Numbered from the stretch's first letter, positions 840 to 24,414 are shown. The stretch is 64,000 bases of DNA from Bdellovibrio sp. (GCA_036676395.1 JAKFCY010000002.1:1600001-1664000); one strand, 5' to 3'. The notes: a model not told the origin generated them from the sequence alone. Numbers and translations are program-made.

Positions 840-1517
840 ATGAAAAAGCTATTATTACCGATCGTATCAAGCGCGTTATTATTACTAGTATCATGTAAAC
901 AGGAGTTTTCAGGAACTGTAGACATCCTATCTCAAATTCAATTGAGATCTACTAAGGGTGAAAATGTTCTCATCAATCCTGGTTATAAAAACTCAAAAAT
1001 CAAATTCACCGGCAAAAAGAAATTTGAATTACACTTAGACGGAAAAAAATTCGAATTCAGAACTGAACAAAACCTTAAAAAAATCAATGCAGGCGATTCT
1101 TTAAATTTACCTGCTGGATCAAACGGCCAATCCTATCATCTTAATGCTAAGTATGACGTTTCAACTCAAAGCTCTGGCTTAATTCGTTCTGTTGAAAGCT
1201 GTTCATACAATGTAACTGAACAACGTTGTCAAAACATCCAACAGCCAAAAGGTTGCCAACAAGTTAAAGAGTGCGCACCAAACGGTGGATCTTGCAAAGT
1301 TCGCGAAGTATGTACTGATGGCCAAACAGTCACTAAATGCGGCCCAGTATCAGTAACTCGTTACGGTAACCAAGAAGTTGAATACTATAACAGAACAACA
1401 ACTGACCACATGAATGGACAATTGATCCATCCAGCTAACGGCGCCGTCGTAGCTAAACTTAATGTTGCTGACAGTGAAAACGAAAAAATCTACCAATACA
1501 GAGCTGTTTGTAGATAG
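840..1517 (+). CDS. Cysteine-rich lipoprotein, unknown function
   Basis: ATG at 840 follows AGGGGA. Lipobox LVSC. Multiple cysteines in the C-terminal half. Confidence 0.75.
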   Translation: MKKLLLPIVSSALLLLVSCKQEFSGTVDILSQIQLRSTKGENVLINPGYKNSKIKFTGKKKFELHLDGKKFEFRTEQNLKKINAGDSLNLPAGSNGQSYHLNAKYDVSTQSSGLIRSVESCSYNVTEQRCQNIQQPKGCQQVKECAPNGGSCKVREVCTDGQTVTKCGPVSVTRYGNQEVEYYNRTTTDHMNGQLIHPANGAVVAKLNVADSENEKIYQYRAVCR

Positions 1518-1548
1518 TTTCGAAATTAAAAATTTTAAGTTTCATTAT

Positions 1549-1573
1549 AGGGCACCTAGTTAGGTGCCCTTTT
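1549..1573 (+). terminator. Intrinsic terminator
   Basis: AGGGCACCTA-GT-TAGGTGCCCT inverted repeat followed by a T-run, just after the 1517 stop. Confidence 0.8.
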
Positions 1574-1636
1574 CATTTTGAAACATCTTTAATCACTTGA
1601 ATTATTAAGCATTTATGAAATACACGGCCCCTTCAT

Positions 1637-1663
1637 TTTAACCAGCAAGTTATCCGCCGACAA
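1637..1663 (+). promoter_or_regulatory. Putative sigma28 (FliA) promoter
   Basis: TTTAA...GCCGACAA directly upstream of a chemoreceptor gene. Confidence 0.5.
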
Positions 1664-1669
1664 GAAATT

Positions 1670-3664
1670 ATGGCAATACTTGATCAATTATCTTTAAAGA
1701 AAAAAACCACCAGTCCCTTAATTTTAATGGCCTTCGGGTTGTTAATGGCTGGGGCAATCTTAATTACAAATTCATGGTACAGATTAAACCAGGCAAAAGG
1801 TTTAACTTATTCAAACGAGGCCCTTTCACTTATTTCAAATGTTATCCATGAAACACAAATAGAAAGAGGCATTTCTTCATTGTATCTGACCGGAAAAGCA
1901 ACGTTAGATGAAGTTCGCCAACAGCGAAAAAAAGTAGATGAAAATCTAAAAACAGCTGCAGCCTATACCCAAGAAGAAAAGTCGGTTGAATTACTTAAGA
2001 TAAAAGAGCAGGCTCTGGGTCGTTTAAATGAAATTCGTAGCGGTGTAGACAAACAAGCCGTAGCTACTGAAATGGCAAAAGGTTTTGGTCAAGTGATCGA
2101 CATCTGGATGAATTTACAAATCGGATACGCACGCCTTTATCAGATGGATGGACTTGAATCGAACTTGCTAAGCATCGTAATTTTTGAAAAATCAAAAGAA
2201 AATATGGGGCGGCTGCGTGCCTTACTTAACGTATCTTTAGGCGCAGACAAACCAATTCCGCCACAGACTGTTTCGCTATTATCAAATTTTAAAGCTGGGA
2301 TCATGTCTAATTTAGATTCGCCGGGTCTTTCAATTACTGCCGACAGCCGCAAAGCCGTCGCGAACATACTCGCCTCAGAAGATTGGAAGTCAGTACAAAC
2401 TACTTTCGATACAGTTATTGAACATTCGGCAACTGGCTCTTATGGTGTTGATGCAAAAAATTTTTCGGCCACAATTACCCGTGTTATCAACGGCGTCAAA
2501 GAAGTCATCGATCCTGAAATTGACCACACTCGCCAAACATTACAGGCAGCACAAACTTCTGCAAGTATTCATTTCTGGGTCAGTTTAAGTTCACTTCTGG
2601 TTTTATTGCTGGCCAGTTTTTCTTTGGCTTTTGTTGTTATTCGGTCGATGACTGAGTCTTTATCAAATATTTCTGACCAGCTTTCAAACGGAGCCGATCT
2701 GGTTTCAAGAATTGTAACGCAAATAGATTCAGCCAGCCAAAATCTTTCTGCGAGCACCTTGCAACAAGCGGCCGCCCTGCAACAAACAGCAACAGCCGTT
2801 GAAGAAACCTCGATGATGGTTAAACGCAATGCTGAAAATGCCGTCGCATCGACAGAACTTTCTGAACAAAGCAGGCACACAGCGACCGAAGGGCAAAAAA
2901 CAGTTGAAGCCATGAAAACAACTATTAAAGAAATCTCGCAATGTACAGAAGCCATCGCCAATCAAATTCATGAAAACGACCGCGAGATGAGTGTTATTTT
3001 ACAAATCATCAGCGAAGTCGGCTCTAAAACAAAAATTATTAACGATATCGTTTTTCAAACTCGTCTTCTTTCTTTTAATGCTTCAGTTGAAGCCGCCAGA
3101 GCCGGAGAAGCCGGAAAAGGCTTTGCTGTTGTCGCCGAAGAAGTCGGAAACCTTGCAAAATCCAGTGGCGCGGCCGCTCAAGAAATTTCGCAATTACTTG
3201 AAAAAAGCATTCAGCAAGTCAATGGCATCGTTGTTACAACAAAAACGCGTATCGAAGGTTTAGTCGGCAGCGCAAAAAATAAAGTCGAAGCTGGAACTAC
3301 TGGAGCCGAAGAATGTGGAAATGTTCTGGGTCAAATTGTACTTCACGCCTCTGATGTCGGATCACGACTTAATCAAATATCAATAGGAAGCACAGAACAG
3401 TCTCGCGGCATTGATGAAATTTCTAATGCAGTTCGTGAACTTGATAAAGTCGCTCAAATCAATTCGACAAGTGCACAGCAATCAACGGCTTCAGCTCTTG
3501 AATTAAGCGATCAGGTTACCGAATTAAACAATATGATCCAACGATTGCATATGGTTGTTCATGGTCTTGGTGAAAGTAACCAGCACAAGCCTCATAATTT
3601 AACTCCTCTTTCTGCGGCAAAACGCCCACAGAAAGTAGCGCCTCAGAAAAAGATCGCCAGTTAA
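1670..3664 (+). CDS. Methyl-accepting chemotaxis protein with NIT-like periplasmic sensor
   Basis: Two TM helices. MCP hairpin motif QTRLLSFNASVEAARAGEAGKGFAVVAEEV. HETQIERG and KENMGRLRA resemble NIT-domain motifs. Confidence 0.9.
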   Translation: MAILDQLSLKKKTTSPLILMAFGLLMAGAILITNSWYRLNQAKGLTYSNEALSLISNVIHETQIERGISSLYLTGKATLDEVRQQRKKVDENLKTAAAYTQEEKSVELLKIKEQALGRLNEIRSGVDKQAVATEMAKGFGQVIDIWMNLQIGYARLYQMDGLESNLLSIVIFEKSKENMGRLRALLNVSLGADKPIPPQTVSLLSNFKAGIMSNLDSPGLSITADSRKAVANILASEDWKSVQTTFDTVIEHSATGSYGVDAKNFSATITRVINGVKEVIDPEIDHTRQTLQAAQTSASIHFWVSLSSLLVLLLASFSLAFVVIRSMTESLSNISDQLSNGADLVSRIVTQIDSASQNLSASTLQQAAALQQTATAVEETSMMVKRNAENAVASTELSEQSRHTATEGQKTVEAMKTTIKEISQCTEAIANQIHENDREMSVILQIISEVGSKTKIINDIVFQTRLLSFNASVEAARAGEAGKGFAVVAEEVGNLAKSSGAAAQEISQLLEKSIQQVNGIVVTTKTRIEGLVGSAKNKVEAGTTGAEECGNVLGQIVLHASDVGSRLNQISIGSTEQSRGIDEISNAVRELDKVAQINSTSAQQSTASALELSDQVTELNNMIQRLHMVVHGLGESNQHKPHNLTPLSAAKRPQKVAPQKKIAS

Positions 3665-3778
3665 GCAAACATCTGCGCATCTGGCCTTACAATGTAATGC
3701 ACAATTAATAGAAATTGCCGTAAAATGAGTGCACTGCTCTTGGATTTTCGCTAAATTATAACCTTTAGAGGTTTAATT

Positions 3779-5722
3779 ATGTCAGATGCACAAAAACCAC
3801 AGTTTACGCAGCCAACTGATGTTAAGTCAGTTTTAGCCATGCACAAAAAACCTAAAAAAGTTGTCGTGACCGCGGGTATGCCCTACGCGAATGGTCCACT
3901 GCATTTAGGTCATTTAGCCGGAGCCCACGTTCCAGCCGATATTTACGCGCGCTGGATGCGAATGCTTATTGGTGCAGAAAATGTTTTGTTCGTTAACGGT
4001 AACGATGACCACGGTTCAACTTCTGAAGTTGCAGCTAATAAAGCTGGTAAAACCATTCGTGAATTTATCGACGCGATTCATGAACAGCAAAAAGACACTT
4101 TAAAAAAATATTCTGTTCAAACCGATGTGTTCACAGGAACTTCACGCCCTGAGACCTACCCGCTTCACGAAAAGTATTCGCAAGATTTCTTACGTCGTTT
4201 ATACAAAAACGATATGCTAGAAAAACGCATTACCAAACAATGGTTTGATCCGAAAGCTAATCGCTTTTTACAAGATCGTTTTGTTCGTGGCACCTGCCCG
4301 AATTGCCAAAGTACTGAAGCTTACTCTGATGAGTGCGACGCTTGTGGGGCTAAGTTTGATCCCAATGAATTAAAAGAACCACGCAGTCAGTTAACTGATG
4401 CTACTCCTGAACTACGTGACACCGCTCACTGGTGGCTGAACATGTGGAAAGTGGCTGATCCGTTAAAGGCCTGGATTGATACCAAACAAAAAGCTTGGCG
4501 CACTGGCGTTGTTCAAGAAGTGACAAACACGGTATTAATCGGTTGCCGTTTTGAAAACTCGCATGAGCCTGCGTACAAAATTATTAAAGATACTTTACCA
4601 AAACACAAATCTCGTTACGTGCCTGGTAAAAAAGTTGAATGTTTATTTGATAACAAAGCCGATCTTGCTTCAGCACAAGCTACACTAGAAGCTGCGGGCA
4701 TTCCGTCGACGATCACTGACAAATGGGGCTTTCGCCCGATCACTCGTGATGTGTCGAATGGTATTCCGGTTCCACCAGAGTTAGATCCAGAGATGAAAGG
4801 TAAAACACTTTACGTCTGGCCTGATTCATTAATTGCTCCGATTGTGTTTTCGCAAGTTGCACTTAAACAATCAGGTCGTGATCCTGAATCTTACAAAGAT
4901 TTCTGGTGTGATCCAGAAGCCACTGTTGTGCAGTTCTTAGGGCAAGATAACGTTTTTTTCTATGTGATCATGCAAGGCTCTATGTGGTTAGGCCAACAAG
5001 CTAATACACAAATTCAACCAACCAAGGGTGAATTACAGATGACAGAAATCTTAAGCGTTTTTCATTTAATGGTGAATGGCGAAAAGATGAGTAAATCAAC
5101 TGGCAATTTTTATTCTGGCGACCAACTATTAGACATGGGTTACGGCGCTGATCAAATTCGTTATTACTTGGCGATGTTGTCTTTACCTGTAAAAGCATCG
5201 AACTTTGATTTTGCGCACTTTGCTGAACGTAATAAATTTTTAGCGGGTCCGTTAAACGCAGCTTTAGAAAAGCCAATTTCTGCTTGTAATAACAAATTCG
5301 GCGGAGTTGTGCCCGAAGGAAAATTAATCGGTAAAGCAGAAGCCGAAACTGTGAAACTTGTGCAAATGTATTTACGGTCGATGCAAAAAGGTGATTATTC
5401 GACCTTGTTAGGACAAATTGAAAACTACGCGCGGCAAATTAATTCACTCTTCACTCAGTTTAAACCGCACGATGATCGTGGAGTTGAAGCTGATCGTAAG
5501 GACGCTTTGTTTACCTGCTTTTATGTTTTAAAGAATTTAATGATAATGCTAGCGCCATTTGCGCCGAGCACGATGAATGAACTTCGTCTGTCGTTGAATT
5601 TACCTGAAAGTGTAATGATGGCTTCAGAGCTTGGCACTGGCATTCCTGCAGGGCACAAGATCAATGAAAAGCGCACTTACTTTCCTGCTGTCGCTGGTGA
5701 AGCTACTGAAGAACAAGCTTGA
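3779..5722 (+). CDS. metG: Methionine--tRNA ligase
   Basis: PYANGPLHLGH, DDHG, CPNC/CDAC knuckle, ITRD, LYVWPD and KMSKS motifs. Confidence 0.95.
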   Translation: MSDAQKPQFTQPTDVKSVLAMHKKPKKVVVTAGMPYANGPLHLGHLAGAHVPADIYARWMRMLIGAENVLFVNGNDDHGSTSEVAANKAGKTIREFIDAIHEQQKDTLKKYSVQTDVFTGTSRPETYPLHEKYSQDFLRRLYKNDMLEKRITKQWFDPKANRFLQDRFVRGTCPNCQSTEAYSDECDACGAKFDPNELKEPRSQLTDATPELRDTAHWWLNMWKVADPLKAWIDTKQKAWRTGVVQEVTNTVLIGCRFENSHEPAYKIIKDTLPKHKSRYVPGKKVECLFDNKADLASAQATLEAAGIPSTITDKWGFRPITRDVSNGIPVPPELDPEMKGKTLYVWPDSLIAPIVFSQVALKQSGRDPESYKDFWCDPEATVVQFLGQDNVFFYVIMQGSMWLGQQANTQIQPTKGELQMTEILSVFHLMVNGEKMSKSTGNFYSGDQLLDMGYGADQIRYYLAMLSLPVKASNFDFAHFAERNKFLAGPLNAALEKPISACNNKFGGVVPEGKLIGKAEAETVKLVQMYLRSMQKGDYSTLLGQIENYARQINSLFTQFKPHDDRGVEADRKDALFTCFYVLKNLMIMLAPFAPSTMNELRLSLNLPESVMMASELGTGIPAGHKINEKRTYFPAVAGEATEEQA

Positions 5723-15763: not shown

Positions 15764-18195
15764 TAATGCAGCTTCGACCATTTTTTGAAACGTTCAGGAT
15801 TAATGGCTTTTAAAATTTCTTCGTTCGTCGCTGGCAACTCCATCAAAGGATATTTTCCTTTATACGGTGTTAACGTCTTAAGTGCATCGTGAATCGCTGT
15901 CCATACACTTAAACAAAGCAATAATGGCGGCTCGCCTGCCGCTTTGGTGCCGCGAACGTTGGGTTTGTTTTCATTATTATTTAACAAGCGCACATTAAAA
16001 ATTCTTGGCGTATCTTGAATATTCGGAATTTTATACGTACTTGGTGCATGTGATAATAAATAGCCGTTTTTATAAAATAGTTTTTCAGTCGTAACCCAGC
16101 CCATGCCTTGAATAAATGCGCCAGTTACTTGGCCTAAATCAAGCGCTTCATTAATTGGTCGGCCCAGATCCATAATAATATCAACACGAGTCACTTTAGC
16201 TTCGCCGGTGTCTCGATCAATACTGACTTCAGAGCAAGCGGCACCTTGGGTGAAATATAAAAAGGCTACACCTTTGCCCGTTAACTTATTAAAAAGTAAA
16301 CCTGGAAATCTATAATGCGCGTATTCGCTTAGTGAAATTCGATTATGATAGGCTTCAACGATTAACGAATGAAAGCTCATGCGCTTTTCTGGATTTTTTG
16401 TCGAGAAAACTTGGCCATCTTTAAAACTTACCCCGAAGTACTCAGCAATTCCCGAGCTCCATTCAGCGCCTTCGTTAGGATCATTCGTAAGTTTTGCTTC
16501 ATTCACTTCGACTTCGGGCTGAGTACCAAGACCTGCCGTGTGCCTTGCCCAGTGGCTTTCTGGAATATCAAAAAGTTTCAGGGCTAATTCACTCAAGCGC
16601 TGTTTAATTCTGCGAATTCCAATAAGTGCTGCTGCTCCGTTTAGATCTGTACCACTAGAAGCGGCCGTTGGTGAAGTGTTGGCATTTTTATCAGTTGATG
16701 TTGGCATCATGCGAACATCACTGCGCTGCAACCCTAATTCAGAAGCAACTAGTTCAGAAATGCGCGCGTTCACACCTTGGCCCATTTCAGTGGCCCCAGT
16801 TGAAACTTGCAATGTGCCATCACGGTGAATAATGACTAAAGCATTGGCTTGATTCAAAAATCTGGTCGTAAATGAAATACCAAATTTTACTGGCGTTAAT
16901 GACAACCCCTTCATCGGAAGTGATAAATCAGTTATAGCTTTTCGATTATGATCTTCGATTTCTTTACGACGTTTTAAATAATCACTTTCTTTTTCAAGAT
17001 CACTTAATAATCTAGGTAGGCAATTATTTTCAACGACTTGATCGTAGTGAGTCATGTTTCTGCCGTCACGGTCTTCGTAACAATTTAATTTTCTAATCTC
17101 TAAAGAGTCTTTTCCTAAGTAATGCGCGATTTCTTCGATGATTTTTTCAATCATCGCGACACCTTTGGGCCCGCCGAAACCACGAAATGCTGTGTGGGGA
17201 TGGTAATTCGTGCGGCAAACTTGGCCTACAACTCGCATATGCGGAATAAAATAAGCATTATCTGAATGAAGCATCGCGCGCTCCATAATTGATGTCGATA
17301 GATCAGCGTAAGCGCCGCCATCAGAATAAAGTTTGGCATCAAGAGCTGTGATGATACCCTCGTTATCAAAACCGACATTATAAAACACTTCAAACGGATT
17401 GCGTTTACCCGTCATGATCATGTCGTCATCTTTTGTCAGATTAATACGAGCGGCACAATTTAGTTTTTGCGCCACTAACGCTGCGTAGGCCGCAATCGGA
17501 GCAGCTTGGGATTCTTTACCACCAAAACCTCCGCCCATACGTTTTACAATGACGCTCACATCTTTAGAAGTAAGCCCAAGACCGTGCGAAACAACATGCT
17601 GACATTCAGTTGGATGTTGCGATGAAGAATGAATTTCAATCTGCCCGTCTTCTTTAGGGTATGCAACGGCCACATTACTTTCTAAATAGAAATGATCTGC
17701 TCCGCGGATAACTAGTGAATTTTCTAATTTATTGGGTGCAAGTTTTAATGCTTGTTCGACATCACCGCGTTCAATTTTTCTAGACCCTGCGATCCAAGAT
17801 TCTAATGAGATCGCATCTTGAATAGAAAGTACAGCAGGCTTTATTTCATAACTAATTTCAATTAAGGCTTTTGCCTCACAGGCAGCATCAATACTAGTTG
17901 CTGCGATAAGTGCGATCGCTTCGCCAACAAAATTCACTTCAACGTCAGCCAATAACGGCTGATCGCGAAAAATAGTTCCCCAAAGGTTTTCATGAAAGTC
18001 TTTACCTAAGAATATACCCTTTACGCCAGGATGTTTTAAAGCTTTATCAATATTGATCTTTTTAATTTTAGCTTTGGCGTGCGGACTAAATAACACTTCA
18101 ACATGTAATTCATTGGATAACTTTGGGCGATCATCAACGAATTCACTTTGGCCGGTTACATGGGTATGTGCCGAATCGTGAGGAAGATTACTCAT
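15763..18195 (-). CDS. xdhB: Xanthine dehydrogenase molybdopterin-binding subunit
   Basis: PHDSAHTHVTG, RMGGGFGGKESQ, AFRGFGGP, TEMGQG, TAAS and GEPP. Confidence 0.95.
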   Translation of the reverse strand: MSNLPHDSAHTHVTGQSEFVDDRPKLSNELHVEVLFSPHAKAKIKKINIDKALKHPGVKGIFLGKDFHENLWGTIFRDQPLLADVEVNFVGEAIALIAATSIDAACEAKALIEISYEIKPAVLSIQDAISLESWIAGSRKIERGDVEQALKLAPNKLENSLVIRGADHFYLESNVAVAYPKEDGQIEIHSSSQHPTECQHVVSHGLGLTSKDVSVIVKRMGGGFGGKESQAAPIAAYAALVAQKLNCAARINLTKDDDMIMTGKRNPFEVFYNVGFDNEGIITALDAKLYSDGGAYADLSTSIMERAMLHSDNAYFIPHMRVVGQVCRTNYHPHTAFRGFGGPKGVAMIEKIIEEIAHYLGKDSLEIRKLNCYEDRDGRNMTHYDQVVENNCLPRLLSDLEKESDYLKRRKEIEDHNRKAITDLSLPMKGLSLTPVKFGISFTTRFLNQANALVIIHRDGTLQVSTGATEMGQGVNARISELVASELGLQRSDVRMMPTSTDKNANTSPTAASSGTDLNGAAALIGIRRIKQRLSELALKLFDIPESHWARHTAGLGTQPEVEVNEAKLTNDPNEGAEWSSGIAEYFGVSFKDGQVFSTKNPEKRMSFHSLIVEAYHNRISLSEYAHYRFPGLLFNKLTGKGVAFLYFTQGAACSEVSIDRDTGEAKVTRVDIIMDLGRPINEALDLGQVTGAFIQGMGWVTTEKLFYKNGYLLSHAPSTYKIPNIQDTPRIFNVRLLNNNENKPNVRGTKAAGEPPLLLCLSVWTAIHDALKTLTPYKGKYPLMELPATNEEILKAINPERFKKWSKLH

Positions 18196-19654
18196 GACTT
18201 GCCCCATTTTCGCGAAAGAATTTATTAAATAGATTTTCGGTCACGATATGGCGAAATGTATCCGATGCACGTAAATCACTTAATGGCGTAATTTCAGCAT
18301 GCAAATGATCTAAAGCTTTTTCTAACAAGGCTTGGTCGATTGTTGTGTTCGTTAAGCTTTTTTCAGTTTTATATAAACGTAGTGTCGTCGCAGCTACGCC
18401 GCCAACGGCGATTTTAATATCTTTGATTTTAGTTTTTTCTTTATCAGCCCATAATACACGAGCTGCAAAGTTAACCGCTGAAATATCTAAATCTTTACGC
18501 TGAGATATTTTATAAAGCGCTAAAGATTCATGTTTTTGCGGAATATCAAAATGCAAAGCTACGATGATCTCTTTCGAAGTCAGTGCGATTTTGCGATAAT
18601 CTAAAAAAAACGATTCTAATTTCACGAAACGTTTTTTAGTAGGACCATGAATTTCGACTTCAGTGTTCATCGTTAGCAAAAATGGCGGTGTATCAGCAAT
18701 TGGCGAAGCATTTGCCACGTTTCCGACTAAGGTAGCTAAGTTTTTAATTTGTGGCGATGCGAATAAATCTAAAAATCTGGCAAATTCAGGAATCAGATCT
18801 TTCACGTACAAACGCAAATCACTTAACGTAACACGGGCCCCAACCGACAAGCGCGTTTTCGATGTTTTTTCGATGTCATATAATTCGGGCACTAAATGTA
18901 AGCTTAGAGTCTGCGATAAACGCATTTTGCGTTTATTATGCACAACTCCCAGATCTGTGGCCGCAGCTACAATTTTAGCCGATTTGTTTTTACCTAAGAA
19001 ATTAACAGCATCTTTAATTTTAACAGGGGCAAAGAACGAAAATTTATCGCTAGTTAACACAATTGGTACTTTTAAATGAGCTGCCACATCTTTTTGCGAA
19101 GCAAGGCTTGAAAATCTTTTACTCACCGATTCAGATTCGCTCAAAGAAATGTTTTTCGCAGCATCAATAATGGGTTGATAACCGGTGCAGCGGCAAAGAT
19201 TACCTGTGGTCGCATTTTTAGCATCACAAGAAGTAATTTCTGTTTGTTTTTGGCAAAGTTTTTTCTCGACTAAACCAGTCAACGCCATCACAAAACCCGG
19301 AGTACAAAAGCCACACTGACTGCCATGGCAAGTCATCATCGCCTTTTGCACTGGCGTATGCTCTGGATTCGCCAAGGCATCAACTGTGACTAAATGTGAG
19401 CCATCCATCTGTGCAACTGTCGTCACACATGAATTAATCGGCAGAAAAATGTTTTTCTTTTTTCCAGACTGATAAGGGTAAAAACGCAGCACCGAGCAGG
19501 CGCCACAGTCGCCCTCAGCACAGACGATTTTTGTCCCCGTAAGATTCTTATGATAACGAAGATAATCTGAAAGCATCACGCCGGCCTGTTCGCCCGAAAT
19601 TTGATGTCTTTCACCATTAAGATAAAATAGGATGTAATTGCGTGTCTTCATCAA
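18188..19654 (-). CDS. xdhA: Xanthine dehydrogenase Fe-S/FAD subunit
   Basis: CAEGDCGAC, QCGFCTPG, GNLCRC, ASPIAD and DISAV. Confidence 0.95.
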   Translation of the reverse strand: MMKTRNYILFYLNGERHQISGEQAGVMLSDYLRYHKNLTGTKIVCAEGDCGACSVLRFYPYQSGKKKNIFLPINSCVTTVAQMDGSHLVTVDALANPEHTPVQKAMMTCHGSQCGFCTPGFVMALTGLVEKKLCQKQTEITSCDAKNATTGNLCRCTGYQPIIDAAKNISLSESESVSKRFSSLASQKDVAAHLKVPIVLTSDKFSFFAPVKIKDAVNFLGKNKSAKIVAAATDLGVVHNKRKMRLSQTLSLHLVPELYDIEKTSKTRLSVGARVTLSDLRLYVKDLIPEFARFLDLFASPQIKNLATLVGNVANASPIADTPPFLLTMNTEVEIHGPTKKRFVKLESFFLDYRKIALTSKEIIVALHFDIPQKHESLALYKISQRKDLDISAVNFAARVLWADKEKTKIKDIKIAVGGVAATTLRLYKTEKSLTNTTIDQALLEKALDHLHAEITPLSDLRASDTFRHIVTENLFNKFFRENGASHE

Positions 19655-19716
19655 TCTTCATTGTTCCCTTAAAACGCTCTTGATCTAAAGATTTTTCTTT
19701 TGTAACGTAGTTCGTC

Positions 19717-20181
19717 ATGAACAATCAATATATGAAAAGAGCCATTGAGCTTTCAAAAAATAATATCGCCCACGGCGGCGGTCCCTTTGGCGCTGTCATT
19801 GTAAAAGATGGTAAAATTATCGGTGAAGGTTTTAACAAGGTCACCGCTAACAACGACCCCACAGCTCATGCTGAGGTTGAAGCCATCCGCGAAGCTTGTA
19901 AGAACATCAGCAACTTTGATTTAAACGGTGCCGAAATTTACACCAGCTGCGAACCCTGCCCGATGTGCTTATCGGCTATTTACTGGGCGCGCCTATCGAA
20001 AGTTTATTACGCCAATACAAAAAAAGATGCTGCAGATATCGAATTTGATGATGCTTTCATCTACACTGAAATTCCAAAACCGATTGAACAACGAAAAATT
20101 TCAATGGTTCAGATGATGCGCCCCGAAGCTTTAGAAGTTTTTAAAGCCTGGCAAACTTCAACAGTAAAAATTAAGTACTAG
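19717..20181 (+). CDS. guaD: CDA-fold nucleoside deaminase, probable guanine deaminase
   Basis: GGPFGA, AHAE, PCPMC, FDD..IY and C-terminal Tyr, as in Bacillus GuaD. Divergent from xdhA. Confidence 0.85.
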   Translation: MNNQYMKRAIELSKNNIAHGGGPFGAVIVKDGKIIGEGFNKVTANNDPTAHAEVEAIREACKNISNFDLNGAEIYTSCEPCPMCLSAIYWARLSKVYYANTKKDAADIEFDDAFIYTEIPKPIEQRKISMVQMMRPEALEVFKAWQTSTVKIKY

Positions 20182-20699: not shown

Positions 20700-21278
20700 A
20701 TGGAACAAAACAAACCAAGTAACGCTACTACCGAAATAGATACCGCTGCAGAGCGTGCACGCGCCGCCGCAACAAACATCGCCACGACTGCGCCGGTCAC
20801 AGTGACCAACACCCCGAGTGTCGTTGTCGAAGGTGAAATTCGTCAGCTTTTAGAAGAATTTGCAGATTCAGTTCGCAGCGGAAAAATAGAAGATATTATG
20901 TCGTTTTATGATCCAAGTTTAGTCGCCTTCGATGTCGCCCCACCCCTACGCTTTACCAGTGCTACTGAATATAAAAAGAATTGGGAAACCATGTTCACAT
21001 CGGCCATGGAATTTCCAGTCACTTACGAATGGAGTGAAGAAAGAATTTTTGCTAGTGGTGAGATTGGTATTTTTCATTGTCTGATTCACACGGCAGGAAC
21101 ATTTAAAAATCCGCCAGAAGGCCAAGATAAAAATATGGACTGCTGGGGTCGCTACACGTGCGCCTTGAAAAAAACGAATAATCGCTGGCGCATTGTGCAC
21201 GAACACTTTTCAGTGCCCGTGGGTGAAGATGGCAAAGGTTTAATGAATTTGAAACCTGGCTTTCAGGCTTCTCATTAG
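20700..21278 (+). CDS. SnoaL/NTF2-like (YybH) protein
   Basis: AFDVAPPL and WRIVHEHFSVP. Strong AGGAGG RBS. Confidence 0.88.
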   Translation: MEQNKPSNATTEIDTAAERARAAATNIATTAPVTVTNTPSVVVEGEIRQLLEEFADSVRSGKIEDIMSFYDPSLVAFDVAPPLRFTSATEYKKNWETMFTSAMEFPVTYEWSEERIFASGEIGIFHCLIHTAGTFKNPPEGQDKNMDCWGRYTCALKKTNNRWRIVHEHFSVPVGEDGKGLMNLKPGFQASH

Positions 21279-22711
21279 ATCGGTGAATTATTAGAGCATT
21301 GCATTTTACGAAACTGATCCATTTTTGAATAAATGAGGTCAGCCCATAATTCATTAATTCTAGAATTTAAGGCATCGCCTTTTAAACCCGTTTGTTTTTC
21401 AACAAGCTTTTTAAAAGGCATGTCGACATCGTGAAAATTTGAAACTTGCAAGATCGTCATTAAATCCTGACGAGAAACTAAATCTAAACGAGCTACGAAA
21501 TCACGGCGAGCTTGCTCTGTAACAGTTTTTAATCCAGGTAAGTCTTTATTAGGACCTTTTCCCGGCTGCGCTGTCAGGGTACAGTTATTATCAGCAAACA
21601 TATTTAAAGCTCTGTAAGCATTGTAGTCACCACGCGGATGATTTTTATTTTTAACAAACTTCAAATCGCGATTTCCAAATGCAGAACCTAAATCGTGGGT
21701 TCCGGCAATCGGTGAATTACAAAGTTTTTTAAGACCATCAGCAGATTTCACAACATTCGCCTCTTCACATAATAATACGTGCTGCGAACCACGTTCTTCC
21801 ACCGTATGAACCAGATTGATAAATAACGCTAACACCTGAATTTCGTGCTGCTGCAGAACTGATAATTTTTTGAAATTCGTAATGTATTCATCCCAGCGCC
21901 AAGGTGTGTTTACAAAACTTTTTCCAAGTTTTGGATTTGAAGTAAAAGCCTTCATGATACGTTTACCTTCAAACTTTCTCTCGATACTTGCACCCGGAAA
22001 AATATTTGTTTTAGCCACCGGAACTAGCTGCGGTTCTAAACCGTTCTTCCAAGGGTCGGTATCACAGCCAAAGCACACCACTTCATTCACCGGGTAATAA
22101 TTTTCAGACGGAAAGCCCATCATCCAAGCTAAGCGAGTAGCTACGCTACTGGTGTAAGCTTCGCGGTGACGCCATTCATTTAATTCTGATTGGTTTTTCA
22201 TGCCCTCTTCAGACACTTTAAAACGAACTTTTAAAACATCACCGATCATTGGTTTTACTTCGCCTTTTTTAGTCGTATAGGTGATCACGCTGCCATCCTT
22301 ACGAATCATAACATCTTCTTCAAGTTTTCCAGAAATCAATACATCTTTAATCATCGCAGCTTCTGGTGAAAGCTGGCCTTTATCAGACATCATTACATTT
22401 TTATCATCAGTTCTGACACAGCGAAATTTATTGCTTGAGCCATTTTGGTAGCGATAAAAATAGCGGCAAAACAAACGGCTTTGCGCCGTGATTTGAGGCT
22501 CACTGCTCTTAGCACCGGCAATGATTTCATCTGGTGTTTTTTTAGCTGGAGCAGGTAATAAAAAACGAGACTCACGCAAACAATTAATACGGTTAGCGTC
22601 TTTATTGCTGATAGGCTTTTCTAGATCGGCAAAAATTTCGCAGGCGGCAAAGCTAGTTTGAGCAAAGGCCGACGTCATTAATACCATAGCCAAAATACGA
22701 GATAATTTCAT
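21275..22711 (-). CDS. Secreted protein with degenerate atypical kinase-like motifs
   Basis: GGAG RBS before ATG 22711 and a signal peptide. Motifs GSSNKF, LKVRF, EAYTSSVATRLAWMMGF, LVHTVEERGSQ and HDLGSAFG. Confidence 0.6.
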   Translation of the reverse strand: MKLSRILAMVLMTSAFAQTSFAACEIFADLEKPISNKDANRINCLRESRFLLPAPAKKTPDEIIAGAKSSEPQITAQSRLFCRYFYRYQNGSSNKFRCVRTDDKNVMMSDKGQLSPEAAMIKDVLISGKLEEDVMIRKDGSVITYTTKKGEVKPMIGDVLKVRFKVSEEGMKNQSELNEWRHREAYTSSVATRLAWMMGFPSENYYPVNEVVCFGCDTDPWKNGLEPQLVPVAKTNIFPGASIERKFEGKRIMKAFTSNPKLGKSFVNTPWRWDEYITNFKKLSVLQQHEIQVLALFINLVHTVEERGSQHVLLCEEANVVKSADGLKKLCNSPIAGTHDLGSAFGNRDLKFVKNKNHPRGDYNAYRALNMFADNNCTLTAQPGKGPNKDLPGLKTVTEQARRDFVARLDLVSRQDLMTILQVSNFHDVDMPFKKLVEKQTGLKGDALNSRINELWADLIYSKMDQFRKMQCSNNSPI

Positions 22712-22736
22712 AAGATTCTCCAACATGAATTAACCC

Positions 22737-22752
22737 AGCAACCAAGGTGCCA
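22737..22752 (-). promoter_or_regulatory. sigma54 promoter
   Basis: Minus strand TGGCACCTTGGTTGCT, an exact match to TGGCAC-N5-TTGCW. Confidence 0.8.
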
Positions 22753-22875
22753 CTTCAGCTGGTGTTTATTTGCCTTAGAGACCGCAAAAAATGCAAATAG
22801 GCTCCAGATATTGACAGCTTGTCGAATTTCTAAACAGCGAAAGTCGTCTCAAAATGACTATAACGAAAGCCTTCT

Positions 22876-22891
22876 TGGCACCTAGCTTGAA
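22876..22891 (+). promoter_or_regulatory. Putative sigma54 promoter
   Basis: TGGCACCTAGCTTGAA, with one mismatch at -12. Confidence 0.65.
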
Positions 22892-22935
22892 GTTGTAACT
22901 CTCGGTTAAAAAGCCCTTTTTTTTGGAGATACAAA

Positions 22936-24414
22936 ATGACCCTACGTCAAACTTCGCTATTTTTTGTGGTTTTACCATCGTTTTTGGCAACACCTGTCTT
23001 TGCCTTGATGGATTTAAAAACTCCGCGCGGAAGCCAAACGATCAGCTATACGAAAAACGAAGTTTGCGTGATTCCCAGAAAATTTCCGAATATCGATGCT
23101 AAAAAGCAGAATCAATCAAATTATTCGAATAAGGATTTAGAGAGCGAATTAGAATTATGCCGCATGGATTTTTACGCTCAATCCCCGTTTACCAAAAACA
23201 CCGCTACGAGTTACGCGACAGGTTTATGCCCGAAATTACATAACACCAACCCAGGTCTTGAAATTTACGAAATTCAACAAGGTGATAATAAACAAGCTTT
23301 AGAAAATAGAATTTGCGATATGCCCTCAGACATGCGCGACGGCACTAAGCTTGCAAAATATAAATTAAGCACCAGCTGCAGTTACACGCCGTCAATTTTA
23401 GCTTATTATCATGTGTCTCGCATCATGGGAGACCTGTTGAAAGTTCCGCCCGTGGTGTTACGTACCATGGATGTTGAAACTTATAAAGCTGTGCCGGTAA
23501 AAGGTAAAAAAACTTTATCTAAAGGCGGCGTTATCGCTGCTACGTGGAAAAACGTGATCAACCAGTTAAATAACCCAACAACAGATAAACGTGGCCCTTA
23601 TTTATTTACTCATGATTACCAACAAACTTTCGGCGGCCTAATGAAAAATGCCAAAGGTGAAGCCGACTGGTCAGAAATTTCTAATCATGCCGGTGGCGAT
23701 CAAATGGCGCGCGGCAAAGCCTTTATGCAGGAACAAGTGTATTTAGATTTAATTAATCCAAATTTAACGTCTGAATTTATTGGCCAAAACTGGGATCAAA
23801 ACAATGCGCAACGCATGCGTTTAATGGGTGATGCCGCAGATATGTTAGTTTTAGATTTTATTTTACGCCAAGAAGATCGTTTTAATAATATCGCTTACAA
23901 ACTTGAAGTGTCAGGGCTTGTGAAAAATGCGCAAGGCCTGCTTGATATTAAATCTATCGATGTAAAAAAAGCTGATTCAGCTGAAGAGTTAGCCAAAGCC
24001 AATTTAGAGTTTAAAAATAAATATAATACAGACAGTTTCGCCATTCGCCGAATTATGCTTAAAGATAATGACTGTGGCGTGGCCGTCGAAGGCCCTGTAG
24101 CTCGCACAGGTATTGCTGAAAAATTAAAAATGTTAGAAAACATTCGTCATTTGAAAAAATCAACTTACAACCAGCTCTTACGTTTTAATTTATATTTATC
24201 AAGCGCAAGTTCTGCCAGTTACGCCAAAGATTTTTTCATTAAAGAAACGATGATGACAGATAAAGATTATAGTCAGTTTGTTTTAAACACGAAACGTTTA
24301 GCTGAGGGCTTAAAATCATTATGTAACGCAGGCCAATTACATTTAGATCTGCAATTAGAAACCCATTTCGGCGCAAGTTATAAAGCTGGCGCTCAAAACT
24401 GCTCCGTCGATTAA
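22936..24414 (+). CDS. Secreted Fam20C/Four-jointed-like atypical kinase-fold protein
   Basis: Signal peptide. Motifs AKYK, ILAYYHVSRIMG..KVPPVVLR, MLVLDFILRQEDRFNN and LKDNDCG. Confidence 0.7.
   Translation: MTLRQTSLFFVVLPSFLATPVFALMDLKTPRGSQTISYTKNEVCVIPRKFPNIDAKKQNQSNYSNKDLESELELCRMDFYAQSPFTKNTATSYATGLCPKLHNTNPGLEIYEIQQGDNKQALENRICDMPSDMRDGTKLAKYKLSTSCSYTPSILAYYHVSRIMGDLLKVPPVVLRTMDVETYKAVPVKGKKTLSKGGVIAATWKNVINQLNNPTTDKRGPYLFTHDYQQTFGGLMKNAKGEADWSEISNHAGGDQMARGKAFMQEQVYLDLINPNLTSEFIGQNWDQNNAQRMRLMGDAADMLVLDFILRQEDRFNNIAYKLEVSGLVKNAQGLLDIKSIDVKKADSAEELAKANLEFKNKYNTDSFAIRRIMLKDNDCGVAVEGPVARTGIAEKLKMLENIRHLKKSTYNQLLRFNLYLSSASSASYAKDFFIKETMMTDKDYSQFVLNTKRLAEGLKSLCNAGQLHLDLQLETHFGASYKAGAQNCSVD

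Follow-up and report, generated by a model that had tools for sequence, protein, structure and literature searches.

Within a 64,000-nucleotide (nt) stretch of the genome of a Bdellovibrio sp. (GCA_036676395.1 JAKFCY010000002.1:1600001-1664000; hereafter the window), two divergently oriented genes, which we call A and B, encode exported-looking, cysteine-rich proteins with atypical kinase folds. They belong to two separate unnamed families and have remained linked through deep divergence. We propose, with a probability of roughly 0.4, that they form an inducible, exported two-enzyme module, in which B would act as a Fam20/PI4KII-like phosphotransferase and A as a nucleotide-using enzyme with a rebuilt catalytic loop, both in the same pathway. 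Folds, motifs, conservation, synteny, and promoter conservation were computed, and from these we infer export, catalysis, sigma-54 dependence, and co-function. An earlier note on this DNA had described the pair as a kinase plus pseudokinase (or second kinase) module; the kinase folds, exported appearance, synteny, and conserved promoters in that description stand, whereas A and B are not paralogs and A is not an obviously dead pseudokinase.

Exported-looking proteins with atypical kinase folds

The genes and their N-terminal features are as follows.
21275..22726, minus strand: gene A open reading frame (ORF), 483 amino acids (aa); exported-looking, 10-Cys kinase-fold protein
21275..22711, minus strand: likely extent of gene A, 478 aa counted from Met6
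22646..22711, minus strand: signal-peptide-like N-terminus of A, MKLSRILAMVLMTSAFAQTSFA/A (...SFA/A), residues 6-27
22936..24414, plus strand: gene B, 492 aa; exported-looking, 8-Cys Fam20/PI4KII-like kinase
22936..23004, plus strand: signal-peptide-like N-terminus of B, MTLRQTSLFFVVLPSFLATPVFA/L (...VFA/L), residues 1-23

The head-to-head arrangement of two genes of about 480 to 490 aa across a spacer of about 225 bp, as first described, was recovered as ORFs of 483 and 492 aa, the spacer measuring 209 bp from the first ATG of A and 224 bp from its Met6. Met6 is probably the true start of A, since its counterpart is the first residue in 20 of 20 A homologs and its ATG is preceded by a GGAG at a distance of 6 nt. 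Signal peptides and several cysteines had also been claimed for both proteins. Both N-termini indeed look like signal peptides, read by eye from the sequence, and their hydrophobic character is kept in 21 of 21 alignment rows for A and is also conserved across the B alignment. All 10 cysteines of A and all 8 of B lie in the mature part and are invariant or at least 90% conserved within their own families, as would be expected for disulfide-bonded exported proteins. These features suggest that A and B are exported by a Sec-type route.

Gene B has no Pfam match (E up to 1) and no NCBIfam match, and its family profile finds no PDB sequence at E up to 10. Of 6499 candidates, 368 proteins are related to B at E <= 0.001. 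They come from Bdellovibrionota and from records named Bradyrhizobium, Pseudolabrys, and Pyrinomonadaceae, and where they are named, all are called hypothetical. The AlphaFold2 model of B (predicted local distance difference test [pLDDT] of 92.3 and predicted template modeling score [pTM] of 0.91) is closest to the solved Fam20 structures over most of the domain. Fam20C, Fam20A, and Golgi casein kinase head the Foldseek ranking (best E 3.6e-5, for Fam20C), followed by PI4KIIalpha, and the Z scores descend from DrFam20C1 (Z 18.6; 297 residues aligned, B residues 49-473; root-mean-square deviation [rmsd] 4.0) through the sugar-bound form of hydra Fam20 (Z 18.0) and human Fam20C (Z 17.6) to PI4KII as the next family (Z 15-16; PI4KIIalpha Z 16.0), CtkA (Z 12), and HipT (Z 11). 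Identity to Fam20 in the structural alignments is 12-16%. A protein-language-model atlas, taken as a lead, agrees with this, the neighbors of B there including a PF06702 cluster of bacterial proteins (0.91) and four-jointed (0.87).

The conserved segments of B, judged on a family alignment of 49 rows, are these.
23347..23364, plus strand: strand KLAKYK (predicted strand 138-143) with candidate ATP-binding K138/K141/K143, invariant in 49/49 rows
23854..23889, plus strand: catalytic segment DFILRQEDRFNN (D307, Q312, D314, R315, N318), invariant in 49/49 rows
24061..24078, plus strand: DFG-like metal-binding segment KDNDCG; K376, D377, N378, C380, and G381 invariant, D379 at least 90% conserved
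24079..24105, plus strand: six-residue insertion after the DFG-like motif (VAVEGPVAR; residues 382-390), specific to A-paired B proteins

The order of these motifs (K138/K141/K143, then D307, Q312-x-D314-R315-x-x-N318, and K376-D377-N378-D379-C-G) matches that of kinases. By eye, DFILRQEDR and KDNDCGV of B resemble D-F-L-x-x-N-x-D-R and D-N-x-x-G-F-G of Fam20, the pattern common to B and Fam20A being D-F-x-x-x-N/Q-x-D-R and later D-N-x-x-G. Given this Fam20-like catalytic pattern and the DFG-like Asp, B is probably an active phosphotransferase, and the modeled fold together with the catalytic motifs suggests that it is a bacterial relative of the Fam20/PI4KII secretory kinase group.

A PF06702 (Fam20C) search of the same genome gave no match at E up to 10, although the controls of that search also matched nowhere, and across 401 genomes of the phylum the same model gave six weak matches, one of them above the cut-off and none at the A/B locus. 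A sister genome carries a small third kind of exported kinase-like protein (L041, G156:C1:793616-796921, ORF 925-2337, plus strand) with a Pfam Fam20C match of about 27 bits; its alignment to a Fam20A chain in the PDB (E 3.3e-6) prints the Fam20 catalytic segment.

B has three paralogs in its own genome. One of them, B2 (L002, G000:C2:1179559-1183962), lies in an apparent three-gene operon (ORFs 2962-4392, 1474-2904, and 738-1451, all on the minus strand), flanked by signal-peptide-bearing proteins of 476 and 237 aa, neither with a Pfam match; the sequence HCWNGWHASG in the 237-aa protein loosely recalls the loop of Cys-based phosphatases, but the Arg is missing at the expected place. Another, B3 (L003, G000:C2:1710236-1714603), is divergent, with VDNDAAL for KDNDCGV, and adjoins a rhomboid-family gene.

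Gene A is present in one copy in the genome and likewise has no Pfam match (HipA_C and CotH included), no NCBIfam match, and no PDB sequence match for its family profile at E up to 10. The best match of its AlphaFold2 model (pLDDT 85.8, pTM 0.86) is CtkA (Z 12.7; 246 residues aligned, rmsd 4.5), followed by hydra Fam20 (Z 11.1), CotH (Z 11.0), PI4KIIbeta (Z 11.0), and HipA/HipT (Z 7-9), and it also resembles the lipid kinase MavQ (Z 9.8) and LepB (Z 8.3). HipT and HipA head the Foldseek list, and every row among the top 50 is an atypical kinase of the Fam20/PI4KII/CtkA/HipA/CotH group. With CtkA within about 1.6 Z of Fam20, CotH, and PI4KII, no single family is favored, and in the language-model atlas, again as a lead, A falls near unnamed clusters, the nearest named ones being Fam20C, CotH, HipA, and PI3/PI4K (0.84-0.87). 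The top matches of both proteins are thus exclusively kinases of the Fam20, PI4KII, CtkA, HipA, and CotH types, in agreement with the atypical kinase folds that the earlier note had read from the sequence and had proposed to check with Foldseek on AlphaFold models. Two matches to A in the genome scan were flagged with 1 TAA, and the A ORF of L040 is open over 448 aa.

Close relatives of A number only 21, but A is part of a large superfamily of exported-looking, kinase-like proteins that is unnamed and separate from the family of B: a profile search of 1.84 billion cluster representatives retrieved 427 at E <= 0.001, 175 at 1e-10, and 50 at 1e-30. Its kinase-like segments, judged on a family alignment of 21 rows (A and 20 homologs), are the following.
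22229..22231, minus strand: Lys166, candidate beta3 (ATP-binding) lysine in VLKVRF, invariant in the A family
21779..21808, minus strand: catalytic-loop equivalent HTVEERGSQH (E310, R312, and Q315 for D, K, and N), aligned, in a register anchored on the invariant Cys320, with H-x-D-x-K-x-x-N/Q of distant relatives
21668..21697, minus strand: DFG-like segment HDLGSAFGNR (Asp345), invariant in the family

H-x-D-x-K followed by N is the pattern of Hanks-type kinases. The corresponding reference residues of protein kinase A include D166, N171, and D184 (available text of PMC12189002). A departs from this canonical core, as its loop Asp, Lys, and Asn are E310, R312, and Q315. For a census of this loop, the best 150 of the 427 representatives were aligned to the A profile, and 137 aligned over the loop. 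D and K are both present in 59 of the 137 (53 as H-x-D-x-K, then N or Q), D without K in 9, and neither in 65, while E, R, and Q stand at exactly the D/K/N columns in four, which are the clade of A. The DFG-like Asp is kept in 137/137, and where the columns aligned, the beta3 Lys is found in 65/76 and the helix-C Glu in 102/121. In A itself, K166, E189 (the helix-C Glu), and D345 are present and invariant, and E310, R312, G313, Q315, H316, H344, D345, and the stretch G347-R353 are invariant in 21/21 rows. By its residues, then, A keeps the positions expected to bind nucleotide and metal, and each catalytic-loop residue is swapped for a longer, chemically similar one. Kinase-like motifs in the expected order, as originally claimed, are therefore present in both proteins and conserved in both families.

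The loops of the intermediate relatives of A are variable and degenerate, unlike its own invariant E/R/Q. Between the same genomes, A has also diverged less than B (A/B percent identity of 88/85, 80/77, 67/55, and 41/34), which argues against decay. Invariant conservative swaps and the stronger conservation of A together favor a remodeled, functional site over a dead one, as far as residues and their conservation can indicate. A 225-aa fragment among the cluster representatives (P0172) has the loop LVDERGSQH, with Asp at the E310 position and Arg, Gln, and His already as in A, and may be an intermediate between canonical and A-type loops. Elsewhere in the superfamily, two A-like genes lie in tandem (L009, G024:C1:407006-411265, ORFs 1507-2877 and 266-1528, both on the minus strand), their loops reading GFTSDAGFQN, which is degenerate, and SQDADHHNN, which contains a D; they are possibly a degenerate and a canonical kinase-fold protein side by side.

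A and B show BLASTP matches to each other only over short stretches (E 0.02-0.03), and hhalign of the two families gives a probability of 0.45%. By sequence, A and B are thus not detectably related. They are members of two separate unnamed families and not paralogs in the style of Fam20A and Fam20C. A somewhat less probable reading is that A is a true, catalytically dead pseudokinase, for which ATP is no more than a structural ligand and which, in a complex with B, activates B or directs it to its target, as Fam20A does with Fam20C, a precedent outlined in the accessible portion of PMC7948968. Such a role would fit the loss of all three canonical loop residues, the fully degenerate loops of 65 of 137 relatives, the strict pairing of A with one B clade, and the insertion of that clade, placed next to the active site and so open to the action of an allosteric partner. 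It fits less well with the swaps themselves (D to E, K to R, N to Q), which are conservative and hold without exception in the family whereas the loops of degenerate relatives vary, with the stronger conservation of A, with the lack of paralogy, and with an A lineage that lives without B.

An unlikely alternative, which can overlap with the other readings, is that the substrate of one enzyme, or of both, is not a protein but a sugar, glycan, or lipid belonging to the cell envelope or to prey. B is nearly as close to PI4KII (Z 15-16) as to Fam20 (Z 17.6-18.6, including the sugar-bound hydra enzyme), A matches MavQ and LepB, and Fam20B is a xylose kinase (in the part of PMC7948968 available to us). 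No glycan- or lipid-synthesis genes flank the pair, however, the flanks change between lineages, and a substrate is not identifiable from fold similarity.

Linkage of A and B across genomes

A species scan for A, taking one genome per species, found eight loci, all in records labeled Pseudobdellovibrio or Bdellovibrio, and B lies divergently upstream of A in seven of them; four of the seven are from the same genomes as the first synteny comparison. One of the carriers, Pseudobdellovibrio sp. HCB154 (L036), is a complete genome not labeled as a metagenome-assembled genome. A metagenome scan added eight further A loci, and where the upstream side is covered (six loci), B is present in five (L048, L050, L051, L052, and L053). 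In the four closest loci (L033-L036), the whole neighborhood is syntenic with the window, so that adjacency there says little. In L037 and L038 (A 67%, B 55% identical) and in L040 (41% and 34%), all other neighbors from the window are gone and the pair is kept. The check suggested beforehand, that homologs should stay adjacent, thus came out in favor of the pair, also where the flanks differ.

Among 10 other genomes of the genus that were searched with B, seven are without a full-length A, and the best B match in these is 28-40% identical or absent, indicating that no B ortholog is present there. A and a B ortholog are accordingly present or absent together in 14 genus genomes. The B family occurs in 65 of 401 phylum genomes and the A superfamily in 18, and a comparison of the place lists for these genomes found no A-like match beside a B-like match outside the paired clade.

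In a maximum-likelihood tree of 30 B-family rows, all nine paired B proteins fall into one clade (support 100/99), which also holds P0018 (identical to the B of L048) as well as P0021 and P0070, which were counted as probably paired, with the A homologs P0141 and P0140. The clade excludes B2, B3, and the Bradyrhizobium and Acidobacteria types. The insertion after the DFG-like motif is found in 9/9 paired or probably paired rows and in 0/12 unpaired rows, and the A-paired clade also has N for G in the catalytic loop (DR[FY]NN versus DRFGN elsewhere). Judging from this tree and alignment, the pairing arose once and was then retained, with co-occurring changes in B. This supports co-function of A and B, bearing in mind that related genomes are not independent samples.

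That A and B are independent genes without a common function, side by side only through an inherited position and a control region serving both directions, appears quite improbable to us. The full synteny of L033-L036, the single origin of all pairs, and the retention of A without B in L039 would all be compatible with it, but the pair survives replaced flanks down to 41%/34% identity, A and a B ortholog co-occur across the 14 genus genomes, and the paired B proteins carry changes of their own near the active site.

Contigs from a soil metatranscriptome, 95-98% identical, fall on A (21812-22083), on B (23739-23935 and 24116-24292), and on neighboring genes. They are six short contigs of a single metatranscriptome, in which stretches without cover are uninformative, and they give a weak hint that the pair is transcribed in a relative. 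A Pfam scan of the neighbors of the pair returned SnoaL-like, PhyH, CBS, and DUF2231 proteins, and neither these nor a Pfam scan of eight distant A-like ORFs yielded anything informative on function. Further upstream in the window, translations resemble the large subunit and the FeS/FAD subunit of a xanthine-dehydrogenase-type molybdenum hydroxylase (15766-19654, minus strand) and a CMP/dCMP-type deaminase (19717-20181, plus strand), and these genes at 15766-20181 are syntenic in the four closest relatives.

The control region between A and B

The spacer contains three conserved elements, the first two recognized by pattern match and conservation.
22752..22737, minus strand: sigma-54-type -24/-12 element for A, TGGCACCTTGGTTGCT (TGGCAC-N5-TTGC)
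22876..22890, plus strand: sigma-54-type -24/-12 element for B, TGGCACCTAGCTTGA (TGGCAC-N5-TTGA)
22820..22836, unstranded: TGTCGAA-N-AACA (TGT-N11-ACA) element between the two promoters, conserved in spacers

The claim that each gene has its own, correctly oriented TGGCAC-N5-TTG(C/A) element is borne out, and both elements are conserved in orthologous spacers. TGGCAC-N5-TTG[CA] occurs only twice in the 64-kb window, both times in the spacer and in the correct orientation, where shuffles of the window lead one to expect 0.34 matches (4 of 100 shuffles reach two); in the 3.4-Mb genome there are 16 matches versus 8.7 expected from base composition. The A side has the full sigma-54 pattern (GG at -24, GC at -12, 10 nt apart), and its GG and GC are kept in the window and in L033-L038 while the spacer letters vary. 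On the B side, TGGC-N7-TG[CA] is in place in the window, in all seven B-bearing species loci, and in L050-L053; its -12 position reads GA in L033, as in the window, and GC in L034-L038, L040, and L050-L053. The elements compare as follows.
Window: A side TGGCAC-N5-TTGC; B side TGGCAC-N5-TTGA
L033: A side TGGAAC-N5-TTGC; B side TGGCGC-N5-TTGA
L034-L036, L053: A side TGGCAC-N5-TTGC; B side TGGCAC-N5-CTGC
L037: A side TGGCAT-N5-TTGC; B side TGGCAC-N5-CTGC
L038: A side TGGCCT-N5-TTGC; B side TGGCAT-N5-CTGC
L040/L052, L050: A side weak TGGCTx-N5-TTGA; B side TGGCAT-N5-ATGC
L051: A side none found; B side TGGCAC-N5-ATGC

Transcription of A would be expected to start about 15 nt ahead of the Met6 ATG. 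The distances of the central TGT-N11-ACA element to the predicted starts (near 22901 for B and 22726 for A) are roughly 75 and 100 nt. Besides the window, L033-L036, L040, and L053 retain this element, and it is altered in L037 and L038; it is plausibly a shared activator (enhancer) site. The genome encodes rpoN (C2:2419914-2420387, 216 bits) and enhancer-binding proteins (12 strong Sigma54_activat matches). Together with the conservation of both elements, this agrees with the proposed co-regulation of the two genes from their own sigma-54 promoters, and dependence of both A and B on sigma-54 seems likely on these grounds. A scan of the spacer for sigma-70-like promoters and terminators found no correctly placed and correctly oriented sigma-70-like site, and an Rfam scan of the spacer gave no match.

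That the TGGCAC-N5-TTG elements are chance or nonfunctional occurrences and the genes are read from sigma-70 promoters is hardly credible: the TTGA of the B side, the lack of both elements in L048, the A-side leader of only about 15 nt, and the intragenic and nonproductive sigma-54 sites reported in E. coli (in the text of PMC4591121 as available) speak for it, but two correctly oriented matches against 0.34 expected, the conservation of GG and G(C/A) across varying spacers, the lack of a properly placed sigma-70-like site in the spacer, and the presence of such an element ahead of the paralog B3 speak against it.

The element of B3, TGGCGCCCAGGTTGCT (sigma-54-type, TGGCGC-N5-TTGC), lies about 65 nt before the ATG at 1435 of L003, and an exact TGGCAC-N5-TTGA site lies about 1.1 kb downstream (C2:1714235). 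A genome search for the central spacer-type element near sigma-54-like sites found one other place only (C2:2225415/2225282). There, in L055 (G000:C2:2220500-2226500; sites near 4783 and 4916, minus strand), TGTCGA-N-ACA and a sigma-54-like site are no more than 200 nt apart, and the small operon downstream of them has an NtrC-type activator gene (1804-3261, minus strand; C2:2222303-2223760) as its last member. With about 0.3 such coincidences expected by a rough estimate, this is a weak lead to the cognate activator.

Proposed mechanism and significance

In the mechanism that we propose, sigma-54 RNA polymerase would turn on both genes at once, aided by an enhancer-binding activator at the one central site. 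B, predicted to be active, would serve as an exported Fam20/PI4KII-like phosphotransferase, while A would be a remodeled nucleotide-using enzyme, with Glu/Arg/Gln fixed in place of the catalytic Asp/Lys/Asn, and the two might act in the same extracytoplasmic pathway, either sharing a target or modifying one another. That they act on prey is purely conjectural, and the wider B family is also found in records named Bradyrhizobium, Pseudolabrys, and Pyrinomonadaceae.

Several observations weigh against this proposal. With no Pfam or PDB sequence match, the homology of B to Fam20 rests on its fold and on short motifs, and hhalign of the B family with the PF06702-positive bacterial ORF of L041 aligns 18 columns at a probability of 3%. 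In one A lineage (L039 and the metagenomic L049, identical to L039 over the printed 601-bp stretch around the A start), A has no adjacent B and faces an unrelated 586-aa exported protein. The B-side -12 element of the window is TTGA and not TTGC, the spacer of L048 has neither promoter element, the distant pair clade has only weak A-side elements, and none of the 12 enhancer-binding-protein genes lies within the window. The RNA contigs cannot exclude DNA carry-over. We know of no active kinase with Glu at the position of the catalytic base, and the absence of the loop residues from 65 of 137 relatives indicates that loss of catalysis is clearly tolerated in the A superfamily. Moreover, the periplasm is generally regarded as being without ATP. 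A search of the same genome with PF03219 (TLC nucleotide carrier) found none, though its controls also matched nowhere.

Comparison with known systems brings out both likenesses and departures. PI4KIIalpha and PI4KIIbeta provide the second-best fold for B (Z 15-16) and count as joint best for A (Z 10-11), yet PI4KII enzymes are cytosolic, membrane-bound lipid kinases, whereas A and B lack a PF00454 match and are exported-looking and Cys-rich. CtkA, a secreted kinase of Helicobacter pylori, and HipA/HipT share their fold with A, CtkA best, at 10-11% identity; unlike them, A has no HipA Pfam match and no antitoxin-type partner, a long Cys-rich N-terminal part, and E/R/Q for D/K/N. The control region resembles NtrC/NifA-type sigma-54 promoters in its GG and GC spaced 10 nt apart, its TGT-N11-ACA lying 50-100 nt upstream, and the presence of rpoN and activators in the genome, but differs in that two divergent promoters appear to share one central site and no activator gene is adjacent. 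CotH, a bacterial extracytoplasmic atypical kinase related to Fam20C, matches the fold of A (Z 11.0), and in contrast to CotH, which the available text of PMC12189002 describes as having no DFG motif, A and B keep a DFG-like Asp. Fam20 itself is most like B in its fold and, as matched by eye, in its D-F-x-x-x-N/Q-x-D-R catalytic segment and D-N-x-x-G metal site; B departs from it by the lack of a PF06702 or PDB sequence match, by its bacterial host, and by expression that reads as sigma-54 driven. B, exported-looking and Cys-rich, is accompanied by a second kinase-fold protein, as Fam20C is by Fam20A. Fam20A is a pseudokinase restricted to vertebrates; it forms heterodimers or tetramers with Fam20C, thereby activating it, and has Gln in place of the Mn-binding Glu (as given in the passages of PMC7948968 available to us). 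Unlike Fam20A, A deviates in the catalytic loop and not at this Glu, and it is no paralog of B.

The earlier note knew of no account of such a module. In the full-text literature covered, with most subscription journals outside it, neither a pair of this kind nor any Sec-exported Fam20-like kinase of Bdellovibrionota was found to be described. Extracytoplasmic phosphorylation has a firm place in animals, where Fam20C accounts for most of the secreted phosphoproteome, and in Bacillus spores, where CotH acts. To our knowledge, it is essentially undescribed in Gram-negative bacteria. In a survey of the Legionella kinome, the FAM20 cluster is regarded as specific to eukaryotes or to Metazoa (available portion of PMC9758233), and a 2026 preprint, in the part accessible to us, lists FAM20B among possible Myxococcota-related genes. 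What appears new here is the conserved pairing of B with a second, unrelated kinase-fold family, together with the Glu/Arg/Gln loop of A, the clade-specific insertion of B, and a putative shared sigma-54 control region, and this combination suggests that a phosphorylation system of a kind not described before operates outside the cytoplasm.

A bolder form of the proposal, which we hold to be rather improbable, would make the pair an independently arisen bacterial counterpart of Fam20A and Fam20C. B would be controlled or aimed by the unrelated A, which might activate B through its insertion or make a different nucleotide-dependent modification, and the pair, switched by a sigma-54 activator, would phosphorylate components of the envelope or of prey outside the cytoplasm. 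If this were true, a usable nucleotide supply would be implied in a compartment that textbooks treat as ATP-free.

Our findings concern large families without a Pfam or NCBIfam model, namely, 427 cluster representatives for the A superfamily and at least 368 proteins for the B family. The Glu/Arg/Gln loop of A amounts to a natural experiment on what a kinase active site tolerates or can become, and the pair as a whole offers a compact, testable case of two unnamed exported kinase-fold families that are linked through deep divergence and may be governed by one inducible control region.

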